This document shows, piece by piece, positions 11,883 to 26,895 of a stretch of DNA of 32,000 nucleotides; the stretch's first letter is position 1, and each line of letters opens with the position of its first letter. The position numbers were made by a program, and so were the translations under genes. A model generated the notes under the pieces. It was not told the origin of the DNA and did no database searches. It saw only the letters and a program-made list of their open reading frames with translations. Source of the DNA: Tannockella kyphosi (GTDB lineage: Bacteria; Bacillota_I; Bacilli_A; Erysipelotrichales; Coprobacillaceae); assembly GCF_021054785.1 (NCBI RefSeq), contig NZ_CP088239.1:1800001-1832000 (forward strand), given 5' to 3'.

Positions 11883-12046
11883 ACTTGAGTTTTGAAAATC
11901 AATCATCTTCTTATAAGCAGACTATTCTATTATAAGTTCATCATTTTTCCCCACTTGATAAACTTGTCCTTGTTTTAACAAAACGATCTTATCGCTCTAG
12001 CAATAATACGCATTCTATGTGTTATTACTAATACTGTTTTATCTTT
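11883..12046 (-). pseudogene. Remnant of an ABC-transporter 3' end (copy c), directly abutting the IS3 right end
   Basis: acttgagttttgaaaatcaatcat...ctctagcaataatacgcattctatgtgttattactaatactgttttatcttt aligns to 2190..2350 and to copy a. It shares copy a's breakpoint. Confidence 0.7.
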
Positions 12047-12123
12047 AGTATATCTTGTACAACATCAAAATATCTCCTACATTATGATCTGTAATTAAGA
12101 AACAGGAGACAACAAATAGAAAT

Positions 12124-12200
12124 ACGGGACAATACCATACATATTATTACTAAAAACGGGGCAATATAAAGAATACAGTATTGAAAAAACGGGGCAAATA
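12124..12200 (+). promoter_or_regulatory. Three direct ACGGG(G/A)CAA(T) boxes upstream of the DUF4143 ATPase gene
   Basis: ACGGGACAAT (12124), ACGGGGCAAT (12156) and ACGGGGCAAAT (12189), spaced 32-33 bp apart, about three helical turns. One box is also present in copy a (1956..1973). Confidence 0.4.
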
Positions 12201-12229
12201 ATATATTGTATAGTTGGAGGTATAAATAT

Positions 12230-13576
12230 ATGTATAGAAAAGATTCCCTTATGATTAAAGATTGGCTTGAAAAATCAAATAAAGCTTTATTAGTAACAGG
12301 AGCAAGACAAATAGGTAAAACTTGGTTAATACGTGATGAGATTGAAAAAAGTAGTTATATAAAGTTCGAAGTGAATTTTATTGATCAACCTAATATGGTT
12401 GAGTATTTAAATGTCAACATAAGTGCAGAGGAATTTCTAATTAAGTTAAAAATGATTATGCCAGAGAACTGTAAACCAAAAGAAACAGTAATATTTTTTG
12501 ACGAGGTTCAAAAATGCCCTGAAATAGTCACAAAAATTAAATTCCTTGTGGATGAAGGTAGTTATAAATATATACTGAGTGGCTCATTATTAGGAGTTGA
12601 TCTGAAAGGAATAGCATCAGCTCCTGTTGGATACTTATCTATTCTAAGGATGTATCCTATGGATTTTGAAGAATTTATGCTAGCAAATAATATATCAAAC
12701 ATGACAATCGAGATGTTAAAAGAAAAGTTTGAAACAAAAAGCCCTGTAGATGACTTCATTCACCAAAAACTTTTATCCCTATTTTTTATATACCTTATTG
12801 TTGGTGGAATGCCGGAGGCTGTAAAAACTTATATTGATACAAAAGATATTAGGGATGTTGATAAAGTACAACATGATATCGTCTTACTTTACAAAGAAGA
12901 TTTTACACAATATGAACTGGAGGATAAAAAACTTAGGTTGAAATCTATATATGATATTATTCCAGCGGAGCTAAACAAGCAGAATAAGAAATTCGTTTTC
13001 ACTATGTTAGACAAAGAACTTAAGTTTAACAGATATGAAAATAGCTTTTTATGGTTAAAAGATGCAGGTGTGGCTTTGCCAGTTTATAATGTTGATGTAC
13101 CAATTATTCCACTTTTAGCAAGCAAGAAGAGTAACGTGTTCAGACTCTTTTCCAGTGATATAGGATTATTGACTAGTCAATATCCATCACAAACAAAGAT
13201 TGAGTTAATTAATAATAATGGAGAAGTAAATAATGGTGCACATTTTGAAAATATTGTAGCGCAGCAATTAGTTGCAAATGGATTTGATCCATATTTTTGT
13301 AAAAAGAAAAATATAGGAGAACTAGACTTTGTAATAGAAATGGAAGGTAATATTGTTCCAATTGAAGTCAAATCTGGGAACGACTATAAATCACATAAGG
13401 CTTTGAGTGATTTTTTGAATGTACCCGAGTATCATATTGATAGGGCATATGTTTTTTGCAAAGGAAATGTAGATGTTAAAGAAAAAGTAACATATCTTCC
13501 AATTTACATGTGTTATCTTCTAAAAGAAAAGAAACTTCCCATGATGAAAGTAGAATTAGATCTTAATGGTTTGTAG
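12230..13576 (+). CDS. AAA+ ATPase of the AAA_14/DUF4143 family (COG1373-like, 448 aa)
   Basis: Walker A LLVTGARQIGKT, Walker B-like VIFFDEVQ, plus the C-terminal ...GELDFVIE...PIEVKSG motif typical of DUF4143. ATG at 12230 follows GGAGG. The track start at 12206 is a TTG. Confidence 0.8.
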   Translation: MYRKDSLMIKDWLEKSNKALLVTGARQIGKTWLIRDEIEKSSYIKFEVNFIDQPNMVEYLNVNISAEEFLIKLKMIMPENCKPKETVIFFDEVQKCPEIVTKIKFLVDEGSYKYILSGSLLGVDLKGIASAPVGYLSILRMYPMDFEEFMLANNISNMTIEMLKEKFETKSPVDDFIHQKLLSLFFIYLIVGGMPEAVKTYIDTKDIRDVDKVQHDIVLLYKEDFTQYELEDKKLRLKSIYDIIPAELNKQNKKFVFTMLDKELKFNRYENSFLWLKDAGVALPVYNVDVPIIPLLASKKSNVFRLFSSDIGLLTSQYPSQTKIELINNNGEVNNGAHFENIVAQQLVANGFDPYFCKKKNIGELDFVIEMEGNIVPIEVKSGNDYKSHKALSDFLNVPEYHIDRAYVFCKGNVDVKEKVTYLPIYMCYLLKEKKLPMMKVELDLNGL

Positions 13577-13693
13577 AATAGCTAATATAAATCGAGTAGA
13601 GAGCTTTATCAAGTTTAGAGCTTTGTTCTTTCTAAAATGAATAGAAATAGCAACTATAGCACTAAGTTATACACTTTGTGTTAGATCATAAAT

Positions 13694-13730
13694 AAAAGGA
13701 CGAGGTATCATATCAGATTTCGTCCTTTTA
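13694..13730 (+). terminator. Terminator after the ATPase gene (copy c counterpart of 2088..2119)
   Basis: AAAAGGACGA ...15-nt loop... TCGTCCTTTT, then a T-rich tail. Confidence 0.55.
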
Positions 13731-13835: not shown

Positions 13836-14309
13836 TCAATTTTTATAAGAAATTAACGTCGCTAACAAACCTTCAAAATCAGTATTTCCATCAGATTGAA
13901 TCAAACCCGTATCCGCTTTAGAAAATAGATTCGACAGTATCATTGTAGATATCTTTTCATCAATCTTTCCGACATTTAGTAAAGATAAATAAAAATAGGT
14001 TAACACATATTTTTGCTTGTATTCTTCGCTAAGATGTTTTGAAGAAATTATCATTTTTATAAAAACTCTAAGAACATAGATAATTAAACATACCATCGAG
14101 AGCAAAATGACACTACTGTAAACAGGCATATCTTTACTAAATAATGTTATTGAAAAAACAGTTTCATTTATTGTTATCTCCGGTGTTAAAATAAGACCTA
14201 GCAACATCATCAATAAAACCGACAAGGCTAACGTTGCAACACTCCAGTGAATTGTACTTTTTTCGTACTCTTTCGATTTTTCATCAAGAAAGTTAGCCGG
14301 CTCTTCCAA
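13836..14309 (-). CDS. Hypothetical membrane protein (157 aa, TTG start; possibly a fragment of a longer gene)
   Basis: Two clear hydrophobic segments (ATLALSVLLMMLLGLIL and SSVILLSMVCLIIYVL). I recognised no family motif. The start codon and RBS are weak. Confidence 0.35.
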   Translation of the reverse strand: MEEPANFLDEKSKEYEKSTIHWSVATLALSVLLMMLLGLILTPEITINETVFSITLFSKDMPVYSSVILLSMVCLIIYVLRVFIKMIISSKHLSEEYKQKYVLTYFYLSLLNVGKIDEKISTMILSNLFSKADTGLIQSDGNTDFEGLLATLISYKN

Positions 14310-15009: not shown

Positions 15010-15202
15010 GTACAGCAATTTCATCAGCATGATTCTTATGAACACCTGTAATTTCTCCTTTATCCTCCACTCCAGAAAACAATCGTCCTCCCTCAGCATT
15101 AGTCATCAAAAGAATAGCTTCAATAAACTCATTATCTTTTAGTTGTTTAACATCCCTTTGATATTTGATTTTTAATAACTACTTGCTAGGTATAATTCAC
15201 AT
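15010..15202 (-). pseudogene. N-terminal remnant of a COG2865 (AlbA_2/Schlafen-type) gene, paralogue of 24995..26641
   Basis: Reads M*IIPSK*LLKIKYQRDVKQLKDNEFIEAILLMTNAEGGRLFSGVEDKGEITGVHKNHADEIAV against the intact MRIIPSKETLKIEFKSDVKELKDNELIEAVLGMANTEGGQLFLGVEDDGVITGVHKKHADEIGV. It has two nonsense codons and is truncated after about 64 codons. Confidence 0.8.
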
Positions 15203-15225
15203 AAAAACACCCACTAAACGCACTC

Positions 15226-15271
15226 TAACGCGCGCGTGTGTTTATTTCAATAATTTTAACGCGCGCGTGTG
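15226..15271 (-). promoter_or_regulatory. Degenerate copy of the (CG)n double-box promoter, upstream of the COG2865 pseudogene
   Basis: TAACGCGCGCGTGTG occurs at 15226..15240 and 15257..15271, offset 31 bp, the same spacing as 26665/26696. On the minus strand TTGAAA, 17 nt, TAGAGT is embedded. Confidence 0.6.
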
Positions 15272-15317
15272 AAAGTGCGCAATGTAAACATTACTTTTAT
15301 AATTACCTATCTCAATT

Positions 15318-15382
15318 CTTTATAAACATCTTTCTATCTCTTTTCTATCACTATTCTCTTTCTATCACTGATAGAATACAAT
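15318..15382 (-). promoter_or_regulatory. Remnant of the tetO-like promoter/5' end of an 18586..19875-type gene
   Basis: Near-identical to 19868..19950, including CTATCACTGATAG (15362..15374) and the ATGTTTA start. An 18-bp deletion lies between two GATAG repeats, and no gene body follows. Confidence 0.65.
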
Positions 15383-15425
15383 TTTTCATTCTTTTTTAAA
15401 ACAAAAAACTCTCCTAAGAAAGTTT
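15383..15425 (-). repeat. R1: truncated array repeat (left flank plus terminator hairpin only); terminator of the ATPase gene
   Basis: tttttcattcttttttaaaacaaaaaACTCTCCTAAGAAAGTT, hairpin 15407..15424. Homology ends 10 nt from the stop of 15435..16637. Confidence 0.75.
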
Positions 15426-15434
15426 CCTGTCTTC

Positions 15435-16637
15435 TTAACATAGCAAGAAATCTACTATATTTTGATGAATAATACCATTTCTACTCATATCAAATTCATC
15501 ATAAGATATTACATACTTTGGATGATTATCTGATATACTTTCTAATACCGAAAACTCATGTTCAACCACTTCTTCACTTGCAAGCAAATATGCTACTTGA
15601 ATATAGATTTTTTCACTTTGTTTTCTAGCAATAAAATCAATTTCTTTCGTTCCATTTTTACCAACCGTAATAGTATATCCTCTACGTAGTAATTCTACAT
15701 ACACAATATTTTCAAACATAAGATTAATATCTTTCCTATTTCCACCAAATACCGCTTCTCTTAATCCCTGATCAACAAGATAATACTTCTCATTGACCGA
15801 TAGAATCTTTTTACCTTGTATATCTTCTCTTTTCACCCTATAAAATAAATAAGCAGATTCACATGCTCTAATATAATTTAAAACTGTTTCTGGAGAAACA
15901 ACTCTCCCTTCATTTTTAAAATATTTTGAAATGTTCGTTGCAGAAAAGGTAGTTCCTATGTTTGTTGTAACATATGCGATAATGCGCTCCAGTAAATCTA
16001 CATCACGAATATTATTTCGTTTTACTACATCTTTTAACACTAGTGCACTATATAAATCTTTAAGATACATCTTACTTGGTTCTACATCAAATTGTAAATT
16101 ACTAAGATACGGCATACCTCCCATAGTTAAGTATTGTTTAAAAATATCATTAGGACTACTATTAGGAAATAGTTTATTGTAACTCATTGCAAACTCTTCT
16201 AAGGAAAAAGGATAAATAACAAATTCAACATAACGCCCTGATAAATAACTTGCAAGTTCACTAGATAGTAACTTTGCATTTGATCCAGTAATATAAATAT
16301 CACAATCAAATTCCACCCTAAAAGAATTAATTGCTTTTTCCCAATCCTTTACTTCCTGTATTTCATCAAAGAATAAATATACTTTATCATTATTATCCAA
16401 AATGAATTCACTTACTTTATCATGCAATGCGCTTGCTGATAAAATATCAGCATGCCTCATATCTTCAAAGTTAAACTCTATAAACTGTTGTTTATTTACG
16501 CCCTGTCTTAATAATTCTTCTTGTATAAGTTTTAACATAACTGACTTCCCACTTCTACGTACACCTGTTAATACTTTTACCAAATCTTTATTTATAAATG
16601 GCCTGATTTTTTTTAAATACTGTTCACGTTCAATCAT
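15435..16637 (-). CDS. AAA+ ATPase of the AAA_14/DUF4143 family (400 aa)
   Basis: Walker A VLTGVRRSGKS, Walker B LFFDEIQE, C-terminal KEIDFIA...YIQV motif. ATG at 16637 follows GAGGTG. The track start at 16670 adds 11 unsupported codons. Confidence 0.85.
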   Translation of the reverse strand: MIEREQYLKKIRPFINKDLVKVLTGVRRSGKSVMLKLIQEELLRQGVNKQQFIEFNFEDMRHADILSASALHDKVSEFILDNNDKVYLFFDEIQEVKDWEKAINSFRVEFDCDIYITGSNAKLLSSELASYLSGRYVEFVIYPFSLEEFAMSYNKLFPNSSPNDIFKQYLTMGGMPYLSNLQFDVEPSKMYLKDLYSALVLKDVVKRNNIRDVDLLERIIAYVTTNIGTTFSATNISKYFKNEGRVVSPETVLNYIRACESAYLFYRVKREDIQGKKILSVNEKYYLVDQGLREAVFGGNRKDINLMFENIVYVELLRRGYTITVGKNGTKEIDFIARKQSEKIYIQVAYLLASEEVVEHEFSVLESISDNHPKYVISYDEFDMSRNGIIHQNIVDFLLC

Positions 16638-16706
16638 TAGAATCACCTCACTAATATTATAGTATACCACTTATATGTTTTATTCAATCAAATATGATAG
16701 TTTTAA

Positions 16707-16758: not shown

Positions 16759-16887
16759 CTAAAATATATTTATTTCGTTATGCTTTTAGAATTTCAACAA
16801 TAACATTCCTGTCCCTTAAAGTCGTGACAATAAATCAAGTAATCTTATTTGTAATATTCTTTAGCTTCTTCTATAACTTTATTTATA

Positions 16888-17066
16888 AATAAAAAAACTC
16901 TCCTAAGAGAGTTCAAGTTCATGCATAAATCTAACAGTTTGAAGTATTATAACTATCTTTTTGTTATAAATATTCGTTATAAAACAAGAGTTTTTATAGT
17001 GTTTGCATCTTACGAGCATCTTAATCAAATGCACTCAAACAAAGTTTACATCGTATTATGTTCATA
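16888..17066 (-). repeat. R2: full array repeat (subfamily A core; right arm shared with R5)
   Basis: Hairpin AACTCTCCTAAGAGAGTT at 16896..16913, then gttcaagttcatgcataaatctaacagtttgaagtattataactatctttttgtta...tttttatagtgtttgcatcttacgagcatcttaatcaaatgcactc...cgtattatgttcata. It ends 4 nt from the VOC stop codon. Confidence 0.85.
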
Positions 17067-17980: not shown

Positions 17981-18245
17981 CTTACATTCCTTATTATATA
18001 AATTTTAATTGTTCTTACTTTTTTATTAACATATTTTATTGTAAAACAAATACCAACTACAATCAATGTATACAAACCATATATTTGAGTATTAGTATAT
18101 CCTATATAAATCAGTATTGTTATAGTAGTGAATAGACTTATACATACAATATCCTACAAATGCACCATTACAAATATTTTGCATACCGTTCTTGTTTCAT
18201 AACAAATCAGGCTTCATCTAATATAAACACCCTATATATGCAAAT

Positions 18246-18430
18246 TTTATCATACTAGACTTACGCATTCAATGATGGATAACAAATTAAAAACTCTCCT
18301 AAGAGAGTTCAAGTTCATGCATAAATCTAACAGTTTGAAGTATTATAACTATCTTTTTGTTATAAATATTCGTTATAAAACAAGCATTTTTATAGCATTT
18401 GCATATTATGAACAACATAACAACATCGTA
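18246..18430 (-). repeat. R3: full array repeat (subfamily A core; left flank and right arm shared with R6)
   Basis: Left flank ttatcatactagacttacGcattcaatgatggataacaaat, hairpin 18292..18309, core as in R2, arm ...gcatattatgaacaacataacaacatcgtac. Confidence 0.85.
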
Positions 18431-18477
18431 CTAATTACAATAATGGTTATTCAATATTCATTGATTGTTTTATTTTA

Positions 18478-18512
18478 AACGCACGGATAAACGCACGCGT
18501 GCGTTTATCGCA
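18478..18512 (-). promoter_or_regulatory. Orphan CG-box element (promoter-only remnant) containing a 22-bp perfect palindrome
   Basis: AAACGCACGGATAAACGCACGCGTGCGTTTATCGC is colinear with ctAAACGCACtctAACGCGCGCGTGTGTTTAT at 15212..15244. The palindrome ATAAACGCACGCGTGCGTTTAT is at 18487..18508. No downstream gene follows. Confidence 0.5.
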
Positions 18513-18585: not shown

Positions 18586-19875
18586 TTATAACTGATCTGC
18601 TAGCATGTATTTTGTGTTTTTTCCATTTCCTACTTTTACAATAATACCTAGTTTAAGCATTTCACCAATAATACTGTTAGCTCTGGTTACTTTAACATCT
18701 AACAATTCTTCTATTGATAGACGTGTGATATATTTGTTATTTTTTAAATATTCAACTACTAAATTATGTGTTTTTGATAAACCTATTGTGTCATTATTCA
18801 TATTTGGAAGAGTAACTCTAAATGCACCATCTGCATTTTCAAATACTGGTTTATTGATGCATTTATTGTAAGAACTCATTATTTTACCAACACCAATACC
18901 ATAGGATTCAATTAATTGCATTCTATAAAATAATGCTGCTAATTTTTCATTTCTTGCTTGTGATGCACCTAAAAGAATAGCTTCTATCGACATCCCAGAA
19001 ACAAGGCCTCCTAAAGAAACAATCTCAATTTTATTGGAATACACATTAATAAAAGTATCTCCACTATAACTATAATCTCGATGTACGATTGCATTTAATA
19101 ATGCTTCTCTTAATGATAATTCCGGATAATCTTTTTGATCAATTCTTAATAAGCCATCAAATGATGCACTTGTTCTATTATATAACTCAAGTGTAGCATA
19201 TGCATCATTTAATTGTTTAAAAATAGAACCTTTAAATTCTTTTCTATCTATAAAAACACTTTTATCATTGCCTTGAAATACAGCAAGTTTAATAGAATGA
19301 ATACATTCATCTGATGTTAGTAAAGCAAGATTTGTATACATTTCATCATTATTGATAAAACCTAAATTATGCATTTGAACCTGACCAAACTCTAGGTTCC
19401 TTTTTTTCATTTCTTCATTCATTGTATTGAAATGTAAATTTTGTTCAATAGAACGACTATTCTCAAAAGAATCTCCATCTGTTAATTTTATCATCTGGCG
19501 AATTGCATCTTGTGATGCAGGAGCAGAAGATGTCCCTTGTCTAACGTAGACACCTGATGATTTCATTCCCTTATCTTTAAGATAATAAGGTTTTCTTGTT
19601 CCCTCTTCAACAGTTACTTTGATGATATCTTTATTTTCTTCTACTAGTGATTCCACACGTATAAACATCATAGCATCAGGTAAGATATTATCACGAAGAA
19701 GATTCGTTATCGCTAACATAACTTCATCAACATCATTTATTCCAACCACTTCACCACTATCAGCAATTCCTTCATATATTGTTCCACCATCACAGTTAAT
19801 AAATGCAATGACTTCTTTCTTCAAATCTTGTGTATATTTTTCTTTTAACTCTACTTTATAACCCTCTTTAAACAT
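18586..19875 (-). CDS. COG2865-type protein: AlbA_2 (Schlafen-like) N-domain + HATPase_c_4 + C-terminal wHTH (429 aa), paralogue 1
   Basis: N-terminus EGYKVELKEK...NCDGGTIYEGI, central LREALLNAIVHRDYS, C-terminus ITRLSIEELLDVKVTRANSIIGEMLKLGII. RBS AAAGGAG. Confidence 0.8.
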   Translation of the reverse strand: MFKEGYKVELKEKYTQDLKKEVIAFINCDGGTIYEGIADSGEVVGINDVDEVMLAITNLLRDNILPDAMMFIRVESLVEENKDIIKVTVEEGTRKPYYLKDKGMKSSGVYVRQGTSSAPASQDAIRQMIKLTDGDSFENSRSIEQNLHFNTMNEEMKKRNLEFGQVQMHNLGFINNDEMYTNLALLTSDECIHSIKLAVFQGNDKSVFIDRKEFKGSIFKQLNDAYATLELYNRTSASFDGLLRIDQKDYPELSLREALLNAIVHRDYSYSGDTFINVYSNKIEIVSLGGLVSGMSIEAILLGASQARNEKLAALFYRMQLIESYGIGVGKIMSSYNKCINKPVFENADGAFRVTLPNMNNDTIGLSKTHNLVVEYLKNNKYITRLSIEELLDVKVTRANSIIGEMLKLGIIVKVGNGKNTKYMLADQL

Positions 19876-19879
19876 CTTT

Positions 19880-19945
19880 CTATCTCCTTTCTATCACTAT
19901 TCTCTTTCTATCACTGATAGTATCATGTTTTGTGATAGAATACAA
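19880..19945 (-). promoter_or_regulatory. Promoter of paralogue 1 with a tetO-like palindrome and reiterated GATAGAAAG half-sites
   Basis: Minus strand: TTGTAT (19945..19940), 17 nt, TACTAT (19922..19917). The palindrome CTATCACTGATAG (19908..19920) overlaps the -10 element. Further half-sites lie at 19932..19938, 19891..19897 and 19880..19884. Confidence 0.55.
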
Positions 19946-19960
19946 CTTTTTATATAAAAT

Positions 19961-20127
19961 TATCCCCTTTTCATTCTTTTTTAAAACAAAAAACTCTCCT
20001 AAGAGAGTTTAAGTTTATGCATAAATCCAACTGTTTGGAGTATTATAATTATCTTTTTGTTAATGACTAAAGTACATAAAATAAGAGTTTTTATAGTGTT
20101 TGCATCTTATAAGTATCCTAACTATAG
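19961..20127 (-). repeat. R4: full array repeat (subfamily B core; arm shared with R0)
   Basis: Flank tatccccttttcattcttttttaaaac, hairpin 19992..20009, core gtttaagtttatgcataaatccaactgtttggagtattataattatctttttgttaat..., arm gcatcttataagtatcctaactatag. Confidence 0.85.
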
Positions 20128-20224
20128 TCATACAACAATAGTGCTTTTTTACTAGCACATACTGATATAACACGTAATCTTGAGTATATCACCCAAAAAT
20201 GAAGACTAAAAATAGTTAATCCAT

Positions 20225-21670
20225 TTAGCTATAATACTTCTGTGATTTACTCTTAGGTTTTTCCGGTAATGTCATTTTAAGATTTCCACTTTCTATCAAT
20301 GGTAAAACAATTGTATTCATTGCATAATACTGTGTTTTGCCTAAATACTTAGCTAACTCAGATCTTGTTCTCGGTGTTTTACAAAATTCAATAAGTTCTT
20401 CAACCTCGTTTACCTCTGTTTTTCCACTATTAGATATTTTGAGTTTAGACATGACACTATTCTTTAGAATCACAGTAAATGTTCCTCGTCTATTAACAAA
20501 TTCAGGAGGACAAAGACTCATTTTTTCCATTTCATAGTGAATAGTCGGAATACCAGAATATCTATTTTCTGCTGCTTTTTGTACCTCCAGTATATGGGTC
20601 AATGTTTGGTTTCTTGTATCTGCATGAGCCTTTCCTAAACCATCAACAGTAATTCTACCGTAAAGACCTCCTTCATTTGTAATTTCAAGTCGATCACTAT
20701 ACATTACAATTCTTATAGGTGCCCCTTCTGTATGAATACTATAATCTCTATGCATTAGAGCATTTAATATAGCTTCCCTGACTGCTTTAATCGGGTATTC
20801 TGGTTTATCATGTCGTTTTCCTTCATCATCAATAATTGTTTTTTCTCTCATGTTTCTTTTTACAAAAGCAACAGCTTCTTCTAACATTTCAGCGATAGTA
20901 CCCTCTATTCTCTTATTAGAAATAAATCGCTCTCCTTCATCTCCTGTCTGACCCATGATAGTTCCAGGAACAACTACTGCAGTGATGCAGAGTTGTGGAT
21001 AAGTAGCTTGTGGATATTTTGAAAAACACATTATCCCTGAAAAGGTTGGATTTCCACCCTTTATCACTCCCATTAAATGAAGGATTTCATCGTTTGAAAG
21101 CCTTGAAACATTAGGTTTATTTTCTTTTATATTTAGAATATACTTTTCAAGTAATATATCATCTAGTATAGAAAAATCAGTAGAATCAGCAATTCTAATA
21201 TCATCCTTAATTCTTCTATGATATGCATCATAGCTGTAAATTTCATAATCACTCATAGGTTCATCTGCTTCTGCCACACGAATATATGAACCTTTAACCT
21301 TACCTGCACCTTTATAGTAAACAGGTCTATCTGCAATGTCTACTCCAGGAATTTCAGCTGAAACAACCATCTTATTTTCAATCATTGCAACTGTAAATAG
21401 TGGCCTAACTGCAATTTCCATTTGTTTGCATTGTTCAGCAACTTTATGTTGTAAATCTTGAGGATCGTAGACACCAACTATTTCAAAATCCTTTTTCTCA
21501 TCTAATCCAAATAGGATAGTACCTCCACCATCTTGGTTTGAGAAACTTGAAAGTGTATCATATAATTTTGTGAGTGTTCTCTTTTGAACTGCTTTCACTT
21601 CAATATACTGCGTTTCACAATTATATTTTTGAATAGTTTTTACCAAACTAACTAAATCATCTATTTGCAT
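20225..21670 (-). CDS. COG2865-type protein (AlbA_2 + HATPase_c_4 + wHTH, 481 aa), paralogue 2
   Basis: ETQYIEVKA...NQDGGGTILFGL, VREAILNALMHRDYS, C-terminal RTRSELAKYLGKTQYYAMNTIVLPLIESGNL. RBS AGGAGGG. Confidence 0.8.
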   Translation of the reverse strand: MQIDDLVSLVKTIQKYNCETQYIEVKAVQKRTLTKLYDTLSSFSNQDGGGTILFGLDEKKDFEIVGVYDPQDLQHKVAEQCKQMEIAVRPLFTVAMIENKMVVSAEIPGVDIADRPVYYKGAGKVKGSYIRVAEADEPMSDYEIYSYDAYHRRIKDDIRIADSTDFSILDDILLEKYILNIKENKPNVSRLSNDEILHLMGVIKGGNPTFSGIMCFSKYPQATYPQLCITAVVVPGTIMGQTGDEGERFISNKRIEGTIAEMLEEAVAFVKRNMREKTIIDDEGKRHDKPEYPIKAVREAILNALMHRDYSIHTEGAPIRIVMYSDRLEITNEGGLYGRITVDGLGKAHADTRNQTLTHILEVQKAAENRYSGIPTIHYEMEKMSLCPPEFVNRRGTFTVILKNSVMSKLKISNSGKTEVNEVEELIEFCKTPRTRSELAKYLGKTQYYAMNTIVLPLIESGNLKMTLPEKPKSKSQKYYS

Positions 21671-21731
21671 AATACAACCCTCCTAAGTATATTTACTTAT
21701 AATATGCTATTTTAAACAAAATTATTCAATA

Positions 21732-21807
21732 AAATAAACAAAATTATCTATATAAATTTTGTTTATTTATAATTTTAATCTAATTTTACTTATTATTTTG
21801 TTTATTT
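21732..21807. promoter_or_regulatory. AAATAAACAAAATT inverted repeat plus a third half-site upstream of paralogue 2
   Basis: AAATAAACAAAATT (21732..21745), 9 nt, AATTTTGTTTATTT (21755..21768), a perfect 14-bp inverted repeat. A further ATTTTGTTTATTT lies at 21795..21807. Confidence 0.4.
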
Positions 21808-21914
21808 CTGATATTTTTAAAGTATTTTTCTTTATTTTTTCTTTACATAATTTTCTATCACAATTTTCTTTCTACCATTACAGAATACATCTTCCGCTAT
21901 ATATAATTCTTCTT

Positions 21915-22130
21915 TTATCCCTATTTGTTCATTTTAAAACAAAAAAAGAACTCTCCTAAGAAAGTTCAAGTTTATGCATAAATCCAACTGTTTGGAGTAT
22001 TATAATTATCTTTTTGTTAATATATATCCTTTATGAAATAATGTTTTTATAGATCCTTGCATCTTATAAGCATCTTAATCAAATGCACTCAGACAAGTTA
22101 AATACTAGTTTACTACGTATTATGCTCATA
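21915..22130 (-). repeat. R5: full array repeat (subfamily B core; right arm shared with R2)
   Basis: Flank ttatccctatttgttcattttaaaac, hairpin 21948..21967 (GAACTCTCCTAAGAAAGTTC), arm gcatcttataagcatcttaatcaaatgcactcagacaag...cgtattatgctcata. It ends about 12 nt from the stop at 22142. Confidence 0.85.
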
Positions 22131-22799: not shown

Positions 22800-23816
22800 T
22801 CACTTAGTACCTATCGTCTTTTCTAATTCTAACAAGTTATATTCTTTATGAAGTTCTCTTCTTAATTCTTCTTCACTAGGTAAGTATAGTTTATATCTAG
22901 ATGCATATACGTTACTATTTTTAGGTAACGTATATTTTACTAAGCTTTCACTTTTATCCACGCATAACACAATACCAATAGGTGGATTATCTTCTTTACT
23001 ACTTACTTTTTCTTCATAGTAGTTTACATACATTTGCATTTGTCCTAAGTCTTGGTGCGTTAAGTCCCCTATTTTTAAATCAATAATAACAAAACACTTT
23101 AATAAATAATTATAGAATAATAAGTCAATATAAAAATGTCTCCCATCAAAGGTAATTCTTTTTTGTCTTGCTATAAAAGAGAAACCTCTTCCTAATTCTA
23201 ATAAGAATTTTTGTAAATGAGAAATTAAAGCACTTTCTAATTCTTTTTCACTAAAAGATGCCTGATCAGGAAGTCCTAGAAACTCTAATACATAAGGATC
23301 TTTAATAATATCACTTGGTGATTTTAATAATTCATCTTCATCTGACAAGTTATCTTTCATAGTTTTCCCATCTTTACTAGATAATAACCTTTCATAATAA
23401 AAGGAGTGAATTTGTCTTTCTAGTTGCCTAGTACTCCAGTTAGAATTTACACATTCTTCTTCATAAAAATTTCTAGCTTTTTCATTTTCCACTCTCATTA
23501 ACAAACGATAATGAGTCCAACTCAATTCGCCACGCAGTGCGTGGCTTTTTGAAAAAGTTAAATAAAATTGTCTCATATCTTTGAGGCTAGAAACCTTAAA
23601 CCCTGTTCCAAACTCTGCAGACAACTCTTTTGATATAGTTTTAATTAAATCACTCCCATACTCTGCTTTTTCCTTTCCGCCTTGTTTTTCTACTATCGTT
23701 CTACCAATTTCATAATATGCTTGTACCATAGTATTATTAGTTACTTGATATACTTTATCTCTAGCTTGATAGACAATATTTCTTATATCATTTACTATTT
23801 CTTTTTCTAATTCCAT
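22800..23816 (-). CDS. DUF1016/YhcG-family PD-(D/E)xK nuclease-like protein (about 338 aa)
   Basis: The N-terminal part QAYYEIGRTIVE...GK...YG..LI..LS..L matches the YhcG N-domain. C-terminus IDLLFYNYLLKCFVIIDLKIGDLTHQDLGQMQMYVNYY carries D...D-x-K. ATG at 23816 has RBS AGAGGAAA. An alternative start lies at 23852. Confidence 0.75.
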   Translation of the reverse strand: MELEKEIVNDIRNIVYQARDKVYQVTNNTMVQAYYEIGRTIVEKQGGKEKAEYGSDLIKTISKELSAEFGTGFKVSSLKDMRQFYLTFSKSHALRGELSWTHYRLLMRVENEKARNFYEEECVNSNWSTRQLERQIHSFYYERLLSSKDGKTMKDNLSDEDELLKSPSDIIKDPYVLEFLGLPDQASFSEKELESALISHLQKFLLELGRGFSFIARQKRITFDGRHFYIDLLFYNYLLKCFVIIDLKIGDLTHQDLGQMQMYVNYYEEKVSSKEDNPPIGIVLCVDKSESLVKYTLPKNSNVYASRYKLYLPSEEELRRELHKEYNLLELEKTIGTK

Positions 23817-24177
23817 TACTAGTTTCCTCTTTTCTTTTGTTCTTTTCATCATATTATTTAATTACTTTCTCATTAAGTTATACGTATTTTACTAAACAAT
23901 TACTTTTAAATAATAAAAAGCCTTTCTTCTAACTTCATAATATTGTGAAGTAGTTAATAGACTTTTTACTGAAATTCTTATTTAATTGTTTGAAAAATGA
24001 GTAAATCTATGTATTTATATAAAAACCCCTTTTTTATAGTTTATTTAGTTCCTGAATTTTGTACGATAAGGACCAAAAATAGCTTAAAATTGTGTTTGTT
24101 TTAGTACAAAAAGATAACTTTTCGTTCAAAAGGAAAATTATGTTGATTATATCTATGCAATTTGTTTCGGCCTATTA

Positions 24178-24718: not shown

Positions 24719-24752
24719 TGTTTCACACCTCACAAAATATAAAAAGCAAATC

Positions 24753-24942
24753 TTATCATACTAGACTTACTCATTCAATGATGGATAACAAATAAAAAAG
24801 AACTCTCCTAAGAAAGTTCAAGTTTATGCATAAATCCAACTGTTTGGAGTATTATAATTATCTTTTTGTTAATAACTAAAGTATATAAAATAAAAGTTTT
24901 TATAGAGTTTGCATCTTACGTGCAACATAACCACAGACATAC
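24753..24942 (-). repeat. R6: full array repeat (subfamily B core; left flank and right arm shared with R3)
   Basis: Flank ttatcatactagacttacTcattcaatgatggataacaaat, hairpin 24800..24819, arm gcatcttacgtgcaacataaccacagacatac. Confidence 0.85.
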
Positions 24943-24994
24943 AATGACGCCATGTATAATAGTGATTTTGTTGTTCTTAAAATAGTTATCTCCC

Positions 24995-26641
24995 CTATTT
25001 TAATTCATATCTCGATGAGTTTCCTTTTCTAATCAACTCTAGTTTCCCACTTTTTACAAGGTTTTTCAATATTCGGTACGCTTGATCTTTAGTTACTCCT
25101 AGTAATTCTACTACATTATTACGAGTAACATATTTTTGCTGTTTAGCAAGTTTCAGTACTAATTCATCATATTTTAAACGATCAATACCTGTCTGCCTTA
25201 CATAACCCACAACATTATCTTGAGCTTTATACACTTTTACACTTAGCATGTAAACCCTTGATTTACCAGTTCCATTCGCTTCCACAAGTCCACTCTCTAT
25301 TAATTTTTCAATATTTGATTTTGTTCTAGATTCACTAATATGCATAGTATCAGACAATTCTTGTATTGAAACTCTTTTTTGACTTTGTAATGTTGACAAA
25401 ATCAATAAAGAATTGATTGGGAGCATTCTTCCAATTCTATTCTCTTCATTAGACAACATCTTAGCAAATGCCAGGTCTGGATCAGCTCTTTGTACAAATA
25501 ACTTTACATAGCTACTTGTCGACTCTGAATAATCAGGAAATGGACGTCCATAAACGATAGACCCTTCATATATACGATCTATCCCTCGACCAGTTCGTTC
25601 TGCTAACCCTATTCTTTTCATTGCATCTGCCAAAGCATGATTTCGACCGTGTGGTTCAACTGTTAATAAATTATGTAAGTTAACCCCTTCAATAAATCCT
25701 CCTGGACTACTTATTGTTAATCCCTCATCTTCTATTGCTAATCGCACCCTTTGTAATATTGAGTAATCTCTATGACAAAATGCGTTTACTAAACCTTCCC
25801 TAAATGCTGATTCTGAAAACTCTGGAATTGGTATCCTAAATAATCCCGATTCCATTTCACGCTCTGGATTCCATGCCTTTAAGTAGTTTTCAAATATTTC
25901 AAACGTTGCTAGTAAAGGTTTTGAAAACTGTTCATTTACCCTAACTTGTGTTCCTTCAAGAACTTGAAAACTTGATTTTGCAGTAGGCATCAACTCTTCC
26001 AGCCTATCTTCTTTTCCTATCAATAACATGCCTGTTACTGTTGGATATGTTACACCATTTTCTTCTTTAGTTATTCTTAAAGCTTTATCTAAGTCTTCGT
26101 CTGTCAATTCAAGAAGCAATTTGTCCCCTTTTCGCATCTTAATAATGTTTCTAAGTCGCACTCTCTCATTTGGATTTAAATCATTCACTGAGGCATCTGT
26201 AATTATTTGTGCTGAAAAATCCAACAAGCTAAGCTGAGATAAACGTGTATTTATCTCATGTGGATACATTGGTATATTTTCAGGCGAACCATCCAACTTT
26301 AGTCTTCTTCGAAGAATTTTCCCTTCGCTAGAAGCTACAATCGTTCTACTCATAGGTATATCAATCCTTAAAACTTGTTTTCCTTCTTCGATAATTATTT
26401 CCGCTTTAGAAGATACAGACGGAACAGTTTTATTAGCAATTAATGCTACTACACCAATTTCATCAGCATGTTTTTTATGCACACCTGTAATTACTCCGTC
26501 ATCCTCAACACCCAAAAATAATTGTCCCCCCTCGGTATTCGCCATTCCAAGAACAGCTTCAATAAGCTCATTATCTTTTAGTTCTTTAACATCACTTTTA
26601 AATTCAATTTTTAATGTTTCTTTGCTGGGTATAATTCTCAT
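24995..26641 (-). CDS. COG2865-type protein (AlbA_2 + HATPase_c_4 + two C-terminal wHTH, 548 aa), paralogue 3
   Basis: SKETLKIEFKSDV...NTEGGQLFLGV, FREGLVNAFCHRDYS, wHTH-like SIQELSDTMHISESRTKSNIEKLIESGLV and VTRNNVVELLGVTKDQAYRILKNLVKSGKL. ATG at 26641 follows GGAGGTG. The track start at 26689 lies inside the promoter. Confidence 0.85.
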   Translation of the reverse strand: MRIIPSKETLKIEFKSDVKELKDNELIEAVLGMANTEGGQLFLGVEDDGVITGVHKKHADEIGVVALIANKTVPSVSSKAEIIIEEGKQVLRIDIPMSRTIVASSEGKILRRRLKLDGSPENIPMYPHEINTRLSQLSLLDFSAQIITDASVNDLNPNERVRLRNIIKMRKGDKLLLELTDEDLDKALRITKEENGVTYPTVTGMLLIGKEDRLEELMPTAKSSFQVLEGTQVRVNEQFSKPLLATFEIFENYLKAWNPEREMESGLFRIPIPEFSESAFREGLVNAFCHRDYSILQRVRLAIEDEGLTISSPGGFIEGVNLHNLLTVEPHGRNHALADAMKRIGLAERTGRGIDRIYEGSIVYGRPFPDYSESTSSYVKLFVQRADPDLAFAKMLSNEENRIGRMLPINSLLILSTLQSQKRVSIQELSDTMHISESRTKSNIEKLIESGLVEANGTGKSRVYMLSVKVYKAQDNVVGYVRQTGIDRLKYDELVLKLAKQQKYVTRNNVVELLGVTKDQAYRILKNLVKSGKLELIRKGNSSRYELK

Positions 26642-26660
26642 AAAAACACCTCCTAAACGC

Positions 26661-26710
26661 ATTATATCGCGCGCGCGCTTTAATTTCAATAGTTTTATCG
26701 CGCGCGCGCG
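26661..26710 (-). promoter_or_regulatory. Consensus sigma-A-type promoter whose spacer and upstream flank are (CG)n boxes
   Basis: Minus strand: TTGAAA (26689..26684), 17-nt spacer ttaaaGCGCGCGCGCGa, TATAAT (26666..26661). Plus-strand direct repeats TATCGCGCGCGCGC (26665..26678) and TATCGCGCGCGCGCG (26696..26710) are offset by 31 bp. Confidence 0.65.
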
Positions 26711-26790
26711 AAAGAACGCGTAACATCTTCATTTTTTACTTTATATTTATCAATATAATTTAGCACTCCTAAGATGTTATTCATTCTATT

Positions 26791-26895
26791 TATCCCCTTT
26801 TATTTTTTCTTTAAAACAAAAAAAGAACTCTCCTAAGAGAGTTCAAGTTTATGCATAAATCCAACTGTTCGAAAAAATAATAATTATCTTTTTGA
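26791..26895 (-). repeat. R7: native rpsI stop codon, 3' UTR and rho-independent terminator; prototype of the array repeat
   Basis: tatccccttttattttttctttaaaac, hairpin GAACTCTCCTAAGAGAGTTC (26825..26844), then aagtttatgcataaatccaactgtt, identical to R4-R6. ataattatctttttGAGAAC includes the rpsI stop (26884..26886) and its last codons (FSKR*). Confidence 0.85.

Follow-up and report, generated by a model that had tools for sequence, protein, structure and literature searches.

Paired CG-tract boxes in the promoter of a COG2865-type gene of Tannockella kyphosi: putative self-operators that co-vary with a recognition-helix residue

The 32,000-nucleotide stretch of the Tannockella kyphosi genome analysed here (contig NZ_CP088239.1, positions 1,800,001 to 1,832,000; hereafter the window, numbered from its first letter) contains a minus-strand gene for a 548-residue protein of the COG2865 type, and the promoter of this gene holds two boxes of alternating C and G, operator box 1 (O1) upstream of the -35 hexamer and operator box 2 (O2) between the -35 and -10 hexamers. 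Comparison with the promoters of related genes suggests that these boxes probably serve as autoregulatory self-operators, read by the protein that the gene itself encodes. A preliminary description of the sequence had raised the possibility that the direct repeats are operators for the winged helix-turn-helix (wHTH) domains of the encoded protein, and this proposal gains support from the conserved positions of the boxes, their helical spacing, the likeness of the boxes within each locus, and the co-variation of the box core with one residue of the protein, Asp519. The element is of an ordinary kind, that of promoter-embedded autoregulatory operators, in an uncharacterised, widespread, horizontally mobile, and defence-island-associated family, and its CG-rich form is, judging from the relatives, a lineage variant linked to one residue change. 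A common, functionally uncharacterised family (COG2865, Schlafen-related) would thereby gain a concrete DNA target open to experiment, comprising a conserved promoter layout, a helix that is the candidate for reading it (518-530 of the second wHTH domain, wHTH2), and a one-residue specificity rule, and the CG tract in this AT-rich genome would be a protein-recognition variant, not evidence of Z-DNA biology.

The promoter, its boxes and the encoded protein

Read on the minus strand, positions 26720..26639 comprise cgcgttcttt-CGCGCGCGCGCG-ATA-aaacta-TTGAAA-ttaaa-GCGCGCGCGCG-A-TATAAT-gcgttt-AGGAGG-tgttttt-ATG, which in repeat notation becomes, for 26713..26639, TTT(CG)6ATA-aaacta-TTGAAA-ttaaa-G(CG)5A-TATAAT-gcgttt-AGGAGG-N7-ATG (Table 1). 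The two hexamers, TTGAAA and TATAAT at 26689..26661 with 17 bp between them, match the sigma-70/sigma-A-type consensus at 11 of 12 positions and constitute the highest-scoring promoter-like site that a promoter scan found between 24700 and 27000; the promoter of the preliminary description thus stands, as a near-consensus one and not as the perfect consensus that it had been called. Transcription is predicted to start near 26654, and 19 nt separate the -10 hexamer from the ATG, as against 19-20 nt in most orthologues with the canonical family box. The centre of O1 falls between 26705 and 26704, at about -50 relative to the predicted start and 38 bp 5' of the first -10 base. O2 occupies the 17-bp spacer, of which its G(CG)5 tract alone takes 11 positions, and reaches two bases into the -10 hexamer; it is centred at about -19, the centre of the tract lying 7 bp upstream of the start of the -10 hexamer. 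Both boxes contain the 14-nt string GCGCGCGCGCGATA (14/14); the match extends to 17 identities in 18 positions, and the offset between the copies is exactly 31 bp. This offset had been given correctly, but the 15-mer that had been quoted for both boxes occurs in the upstream box only.

The paired alternating boxes at 26661-26710, which were confirmed in sequence, stand out from their surroundings. The window has a G+C content of 29.9% and is depleted of CpG (424 observed and 698 expected), and alternating C/G runs of at least 6 nt occur only at 26668-26678, 26699-26710, 15229-15236, and 15260-15267, so that the earlier remark on the absence of long runs elsewhere holds, runs of this length being confined to the two sites it had named. 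The string CGCGCGCGCG has three matches in the window, all within the two tracts, and none in 100 dinucleotide-preserving shuffles, by which measure the boxes are non-random. A scan of the whole window against Rfam returned no family match, so neither the repeats nor the boxes belong to a known RNA element. Two smaller motifs adjoin the boxes. The GCGTTT 3' of the -10 hexamer may be a third contact or a remnant, and GYGTTT follows the -10 hexamer in many orthologues as well (for example, L010, L017, L020, L022, L059, and L076); the ACGCGT mini-palindrome may be an auxiliary half-site, and additional half-sites 5' of box 1 are common among orthologues, such as the AAACGCACG repeats in L013 and L015 and ACGCGAAA, present twice in L115.

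The encoded protein combines AlbA_2, HATPase_c_4, and C-terminal wHTH domains, the domain set of a COG2865-type protein, with Pfam matches to PF04326 (1.5e-16), PF13749 (1e-14), and PF13412 (2.6e-08) and a TrmB-like second wHTH. The same set is found in COG2865/DIP2311-type proteins, which are related to Schlafen through AlbA_2, and the uncharacterised protein 3lmm (E = 1e-19) is the sole solved relative that was detected by sequence. Homologues number in the thousands (5,980 with E <=0.001 in a word-based search), and their source annotations include 'winged helix-turn-helix transcriptional regulator', 'putative DNA binding domain-containing protein', and 'ATP-dependent DNA helicase RecG'. 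A literature search covering AlbA_2/HATPase_c_4, COG2865, the consensus boxes, and Schlafen together with winged helix and autoregulation yielded nothing relevant on the DNA targets or regulation of the family, and the operator pair and the Asp519 rule described below are new for the COG2865-type family. In an AlphaFold2 model of wHTH2 with a predicted local distance difference test (pLDDT) score above 90, calculated from an alignment of short C-terminal fragments that a protein search with the Asp-type wHTH2 alignment had returned, the recognition helix spans residues 518-530/531 and the wing strands span 534-538 and 544-547. Asp519 is the second residue of this helix, where the model places it well for a base contact. 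The full-length model is poor at residues 219-389 (pLDDT <35) and was therefore excluded from the fold search.

Table 1. Coordinates of the promoter elements, the gene and related features in the window
Feature	Position	Strand	Remark
ACGCGT mini-palindrome	26716..26721	-	just 5' of O1
Operator box 1 (O1), TTT(CG)6ATA	26696..26713	-	near-palindrome T(T/A)T-(CG)6-A(T/A)A
-35 hexamer TTGAAA	26684..26689	-	promoter scan
Operator box 2 (O2), aaG(CG)5ATA	26665..26680	-	direct repeat of O1
-10 hexamer TATAAT	26661..26666	-	promoter scan
GCGTTT	26655..26660	-	between -10 and Shine-Dalgarno; fits outer arm GYGTTT of family consensus box
Predicted leader, very short	26642..26654	-	AGGAGG at 5' end
Gene, 548-aa protein	24995..26641	-	AlbA_2 (8-113), HATPase_c_4 (298-377), wHTH1 (~405-465), wHTH2 (~485-548)
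wHTH2 recognition helix K518-K530 (KDQAYRILKNLVK)	codons 25052..25090	-	Asp519 codon 25085-25087
Intrinsic terminator closing the unit	24800..24819	-	inside repeat that flanks every cassette
Box pair of decayed paralogue fragment (copy B)	15226..15271	-	CACACGCGCGCGTTA twice, 31 bp apart
Orphan family-consensus operator	18477..18508	+	half-site AAACGCACG + palindrome ATAAACGCACGCGTGCGTTTAT; between two cassettes
Cassette repeat, 75-190 bp	15323-15425, 16880-17066, 18240-18425, 19960-20135, 21906-22130, 24746-24944, 26779-26894
PADLOC-matching cargo	12206-13576, 13836-14309, 15435-16670, 22800-23852

Conservation of the layout and co-variation with Asp519

The two-box layout was compared across 80 genomic loci encoding proteins of 54-78% identity and, in addition, the closest relatives, which were fetched separately; overall, the orthologues are 54-84% identical and share a common architecture at about 90 loci in at least six phyla, their hosts including Lachnospiraceae, Oscillospiraceae, Negativicutes, Spirochaetes, Bacteroidota, Verrucomicrobia, Planctomycetes, and Elusimicrobia. 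At nearly all loci, 17 bp separate the -10 hexamer from a -35 hexamer that reads TTGAnn (TCGACA in one clade), and one box lies just 5' of the -35 hexamer and another in the spacer; this promoter was called at the same distance from the start codon in 67 family promoters, the window gene and its decayed copy included; in the canonical clade, the leader is only 19-20 nt long. The palindrome centre lies 38-39 bp upstream of the start of the -10 hexamer at 25 of 36 loci, and the second box lies 7-8 bp upstream. The best direct-repeat offsets are 30-32 bp (25 loci), 22 bp (8), and 42 bp (5), which are three, two, and four whole helical turns, respectively.

Position is thus kept across the family and sequence is not. 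The box of the commonest clade is AAACGCACGCGTGCGTTT, exactly the orphan palindrome of the window, and in L066, for example, the promoter reads AAACGCACGCGTGCGTTT-attttga-TTGACA-a-AACGCACGCGTGCGTT-TATAAT, with a 31-bp offset as well. Other clades carry CGCACGCGTGCG, CTCGCGAG, TAACTCGA, or (CG)n in unchanged position, and a clade of about 61% identity has unrelated boxes, with TTTAACTCGA repeats that overlap the -35 hexamer and an inverted TCGAGTTA that overlaps the -10 hexamer. The two boxes of one locus nevertheless resemble each other: box identity averages 7.5/14 within loci and 5.8/14 between loci, and the observed value was not attained in any of 10,000 permutations.

The CG-type pair is shared with the closest relative (84% identical), whose gene lies between those for an ABC transporter and malic enzyme and whose promoter, ttttaCGCGCGCGATA-aaaaagg-TTGATT-ttt-GCGCGCGCGCGA-TATAAT, is kept together with the boxes although the flanks differ. 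Since relatives at 79-81% identity carry the canonical box, the CG tract is a recent derivative of the family box. The change in the core is symmetric, from CGC-A-CGCG-T-GCG to CGC-G-CGCG-C-GCG, and the flanks have changed too. A conserved partner gene was considered and rejected: among 44 loci with at least 2.5 kb of flank on both sides, no neighbour gene is conserved, the commonest neighbour family being present at only four, which leaves the encoded protein as the sole constant partner of the boxes. Near-identical modules of promoter and gene are also seen in distant phyla (L010-L089), for example in L023 (Lachnospiraceae) and L025 (Paludibacteraceae), which have the same boxes and leader; on sequence comparison, this indicates either recent horizontal transfer of the whole self-regulated unit or mis-binned contigs of metagenome-assembled genomes.

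To relate box type to the protein, the alignment was screened for the column that is the best predictor of a CGCGCGCG core in the 110 nt 5' of the start codon. Among 50 loci with a QAYR recognition helix (Arg523), the core accompanies Asp519 at six of six loci and is present at none of the 44 others, and no other column of the 548 shows a perfect association. The six positive loci belong to five lineages, none of which is the nearest relative of another, and their nearest relatives lack the Asp residue. An out-of-sample test was made on loci chosen solely for encoding Asp at position 519, and the CGCGCGCG core was found at five of these seven blind picks. Five of the seven came from a degenerate DNA pattern for LLx[VI]xxDQAYR, which gave 14 matches in metagenomes, six of them in the family and five of those with upstream sequence, and no matches in viral contigs; four of the five (L101, L107, L111, and L112) have CGCGCGCG or longer cores. 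The fifth positive, L115, was picked from the homologue list and carries AAACGCGCGCGCGTGTTT, even though Ser occupies position 519 in its nearest relatives; Asp was gained independently in L115 and L112. The protein search mentioned above returned only short C-terminal fragments without promoters, which were unusable for the blind test. In total, 11 of 13 Asp loci have the core, against 0 of 44 others (Fisher p = 4e-10, uncorrected for phylogeny; 7 of 8 when counted by lineage).

The co-variation of the CG core with a residue of the recognition helix argues for base-specific readout by the protein. Contact between cytosine N4 and an acidic residue that opens a recognition helix is a familiar form of such readout, and the candidate rule links Asp as the second helix residue to a G:C pair in place of A:T at the third position out from the dyad centre on both sides. 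The clade with TAACTCGA boxes likewise has its own protein features, with a recognition helix of QAYS/T-x-IKK, a wing of GGKYxKYK, and SExK in place of SExR in wHTH1.

A self-operator model and its alternatives

In the model that these data suggest, the encoded protein would bind O1 and O2 through the recognition helix of wHTH2 (518-530), and Asp519 would read the G:C pairs that set CGC-G-CGCG-C-GCG apart from the consensus CGC-A-CGCG-T-GCG. As O2 fills the spacer and touches the -10 hexamer, its occupancy should block RNA polymerase, and the exclusion of the polymerase would result in negative autoregulation. O1, three helical turns upstream on the same face, would add cooperative binding, and binding presumably responds to a signal sensed by the N-terminal domains. 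Together with its promoter and operators, the gene would then form a self-contained one-gene module that moves horizontally. On balance, the loop is expected to be purely repressive, although confidence in this is moderate.

Such an arrangement has well-known counterparts. MarR (marO sites I and II), ArsR/SmtB, and TetR-tetO likewise have palindromic or repeated sites in the promoter of the regulator's own gene, one of them over the -35/-10 region where it excludes RNA polymerase, and the two sites of these autorepressors are likewise placed at whole helical turns; in the MarR/ArsR type, the reader is also a winged helix-turn-helix, and the wHTH2 model matches CadC, ArsR, and MarR structures. 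In contrast to these small dedicated repressors, the regulator here, whose binding is predicted, is a 548-residue multidomain protein, its operators have no sequence relationship to theirs, and its gene is solitary and horizontally mobile, with no regulated partner gene. The C-boxes of the C proteins of restriction-modification systems offer a further parallel, as they too are paired dyad operators in the own-gene promoter of a mobile self-contained unit, and operator and protein specificities likewise diversify among homologues, avoiding cross-talk. C proteins, however, are HTH_3 proteins of about 80 residues that activate and then repress, whereas here a wHTH within a large protein would be the reader, no restriction-modification genes are attached, and the sign of regulation is predicted from the position of the sites.

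Several observations weigh against this model. A position near -50, where O1 lies, is also a classic activator position, so the sign of regulation is inferred solely from the presence of O2 in the spacer; O2 itself is only half-symmetric. wHTH1 could contribute to reading or be the reader in some clades. The co-variation across clades is partly confounded by shared ancestry, and two of the blind picks depart from the rule: L114, from the homologue list, has Asp with a CACGCGTG core, and L102, from the metagenomes, has Asp with the core CA(CG)3TG, even though its protein equals that of L101 over the aligned part. The leader boxes of L101 and L102 differ by a symmetric pair of changes, with TCGCGCGCGCGTTT in one and TCACGCGCGTGTTT in the other; as the aligned proteins are identical, natural operator variants with the same reader exist.

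The preliminary description had also pointed to Z-DNA, and (CG)6 and G(CG)5 are indeed of the most Z-prone sequence type, the tract of the window being the longest CG tract among 88 family promoters. Under this explanation, (CG)5-6 tracts would flip to the left-handed form under negative supercoiling and alter the phasing of the -35 and -10 hexamers, making a promoter switch that works with or without a protein. Alternating purine-pyrimidine runs of at least 12 nt are present in 40 of the 88 promoters, and ACGCACGCGTGCGT itself alternates; but in 42 of the 88, which have the same layout, such runs do not exceed 8 nt, including the whole TAACTCGA clade and, for example, the TTTAACTCGA boxes. 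What selection maintains is thus not Z-proneness, and the Z-DNA idea is not needed, since about half of the family has non-alternating boxes in the same positions, boxes that, unlike Z-DNA-forming (CG)n tracts, cannot form Z-DNA. By a rough Peck-Wang-type estimate, with a junction penalty that agrees with the published value of about 10 kcal/mol (PMC8053131), 12 bp would flip at a threshold |sigma| of about 0.04-0.05. This is a borderline value that might be reached, for example, behind a transcribing polymerase. The usual unconstrained superhelicity in vivo lies below it. The alternating (CG)5-6 tracts resemble Z-DNA-forming (CG)n tracts, and the wHTH2 model can be compared with the Zalpha domains of ADAR1, ZBP1, PKZ, and E3L: it superposes on Zalpha-Z-DNA complexes (TM scores of 0.71/0.86 for 4kmf and 0.67/0.76 for 1qbj), and the protein is 36% identical over 33 residues to a Zalpha sequence. 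The fold matches are generic, however, with ArsR, MarR, and ribosomal winged-helix proteins ranking equally high or higher, and the Zalpha contacts are not kept: N173 and Y177 correspond to Tyr522 and Lys526 (BLASTP alignment), and P192/P193 and W195 to Ser542/Ser543 and Tyr545 (manual alignment only; human ADAR1 numbering). The core, moreover, tracks a recognition-helix residue and the A/T-rich flanks are conserved, which points to base-specific readout of the B-form type and is not expected of domains that read the backbone. A supercoiling switch is thus improbable, and it is highly unlikely that the (CG)6 core exists because the autoregulatory loop also reads structure, with a Zalpha-like wHTH2 binding or stabilising a left-handed or supercoil-dependent operator; if true, this would make the expression of a defence-island gene respond to the supercoiling changes of phage infection or DNA damage.

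Binding of the boxes by the encoded protein is itself a prediction, and they might instead be bound or marked by a factor encoded elsewhere, either another transcription factor or a methyltransferase specific for CGCG or GCGC. CGCG and GCGC are common restriction-modification targets, the window is CpG-depleted, and the region holds defence-candidate genes; no neighbour gene is conserved at the 44 loci, yet the boxes accompany the gene across phyla, their type follows the wHTH2 residue of the gene's own product, and the clades with TAACTCGA and AATTTTGTTTA boxes lack any CGCG site, all of which makes an outside factor quite unlikely. Phase variation is suggested by the placement of a dinucleotide repeat exactly between the -35 and -10 hexamers, where the gain or loss of CG units by slippage would alter the 17-bp spacing and turn the gene on or off in a subpopulation, and the length of box 1 does differ, being (CG)6 in the window and (CG)4 in the 84%-identical relative. 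In the known cases of a short tandem repeat between these hexamers, such as the (TA)n of Haemophilus influenzae hif and the homopolymers of Neisseria porA and opc, the repeat is not duplicated 31 bp upstream outside the spacer as it is here, and no length polymorphism was seen in the present boxes. They are identical in nine of nine independent metagenome contigs that encode the exact protein, and the contigs L090, L091, and L093 of the closest relative, among six listed for that protein, are mutually identical; no length variation is thus seen in 15 assemblies (9 + 6), from which minor variants within a sample would escape. Box 2 and the 17-bp spacer have the same lengths in the window gene, copy B (the decayed fragment described below), and the closest relative, boxes at the same spot in orthologues elsewhere in the family are non-repetitive, and five or six repeat units are few for frequent slippage. 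Slippage as the function of the tracts is accordingly very improbable. That the boxes mark a cassette boundary or recombination site, without a regulatory role, is scarcely credible: the homology of the two copies in the window does start about 5 nt 5' of box 1, and the genes do lie in a repeat-flanked cassette array, but the repeats that flank the cassettes are of a different sequence (the rpsI 3' end and terminator) and lie 60-70 bp further upstream, the boxes are also found at solitary genes outside arrays in other genomes, and they keep a constant distance to the -35 and -10 hexamers and not to the cassette ends.

Related copies, paralogues and the cassette array

Sites related to the CG boxes occur at two further places in the window. 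Copy B, at 15011-15275, is what is left (about 265 bp) of the 5' end and promoter of a paralogue, 81.5% identical to the intact gene; it reads ATG TGA at the start, and its -10 hexamer and Shine-Dalgarno sequence are degenerate. The boxes, TAACGCGCGCGTGTG at 15226-15240 and 15257-15271, both differ from those of the intact copy by the same three changes. In each of them, CACACG and CGCGCG face each other across the dyad centre, an identical hybrid that is intermediate between the canonical and the CG type. The two-box geometry and 31-bp offset that had been reported here are present, but copy B was rejected as separate evidence for the geometry: it arose by duplication of the 5' part of this very gene and has since decayed. 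The other site is the perfect 22-bp palindrome ATAAACGCACGCGTGCGTTTAT at 18487-18508, which had been correctly recognised both as a palindrome and as a relative of the CG boxes: it is the family consensus box, identical to box 1 of many orthologues (for example, L066, L013, and L021). No -35/-10 promoter or gene was found 3' of this orphan operator (18477-18508), which may be a relic of a lost cassette or a site for a canonical-type member encoded elsewhere in the genome. It was also considered as a terminator of the 429-residue gene described below and rejected, since no T-run follows it and it matches the family operator exactly.

The window encodes three AlbA_2/HATPase_c_4 paralogues, whose promoters carry box pairs of three different types. 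The 481-residue paralogue (20225-21670) has its own repeated box, AATTTTGTTTA, on the minus strand at 21711-21768, with one inverted copy upstream and two direct copies, 22 bp apart, that lie beside and reach into the TTGAAT -35 hexamer and the spacer; these boxes follow the same logic as the CG boxes in a different sequence. The 429-residue paralogue (18586-19875) has a tetO-like palindrome, CTATCAGTGATAG, upstream on the minus strand (19920-19908), and its promoter (19891-19940) also contains ATAGTGATAG (19900-19891) and CTATCAC (~19938-19932). Different boxes would avoid cross-talk between paralogues of the same genome, which would explain how several of them coexist without cross-regulation. 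A decayed copy of the promoter and first codons of the 429-residue paralogue lies at 15330-15400, just upstream of copy B.

A row of minus-strand cassettes begins directly after rplM-rpsI, and the gene with the CG boxes heads it. The L13 and S9 ribosomal proteins point to an Erysipelotrichales or Coprobacillaceae-like host. At the end of every cassette stands a repeat in which the 3' end and terminator of rpsI recur, more precisely the last ~12 nt of rpsI (AAAAAGATAA), its 3' untranslated region, and the terminator hairpin GAACTCTCTTAGGAGAGTTC followed by a T-run. Judged from these repeats, the array looks as if cassettes of one or two genes had inserted one after another at the rpsI 3' end, duplicating the target, and no integrase is visible within it. 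The cargo includes PDC-S01 (AAA_14 + DUF4143, in two copies), PDC-S02 (a DUF1016/YhcG PD-(D/E)xK nuclease), and a C-terminal fragment matching the AbiZ model (a DUF6161 protein); as these match phage-defence candidates in PADLOC, the region resembles a defence-candidate island, and members of the family are frequent in variable or defence-type regions. The exact gene was also recovered from nine metagenome runs (L001-L009) as contigs of about 2 kb, a length that is explained by the flanking repeat, which breaks assembly, and one of these contigs, L003, wraps around through the repeat, so that the repeat downstream of the gene runs on into the gene's upstream side. Further dispersed repeats of 80-87% identity lie outside the array at 1731-1968, 2203-2364, 11890-12132, 2008-2104, and 13612-13709.

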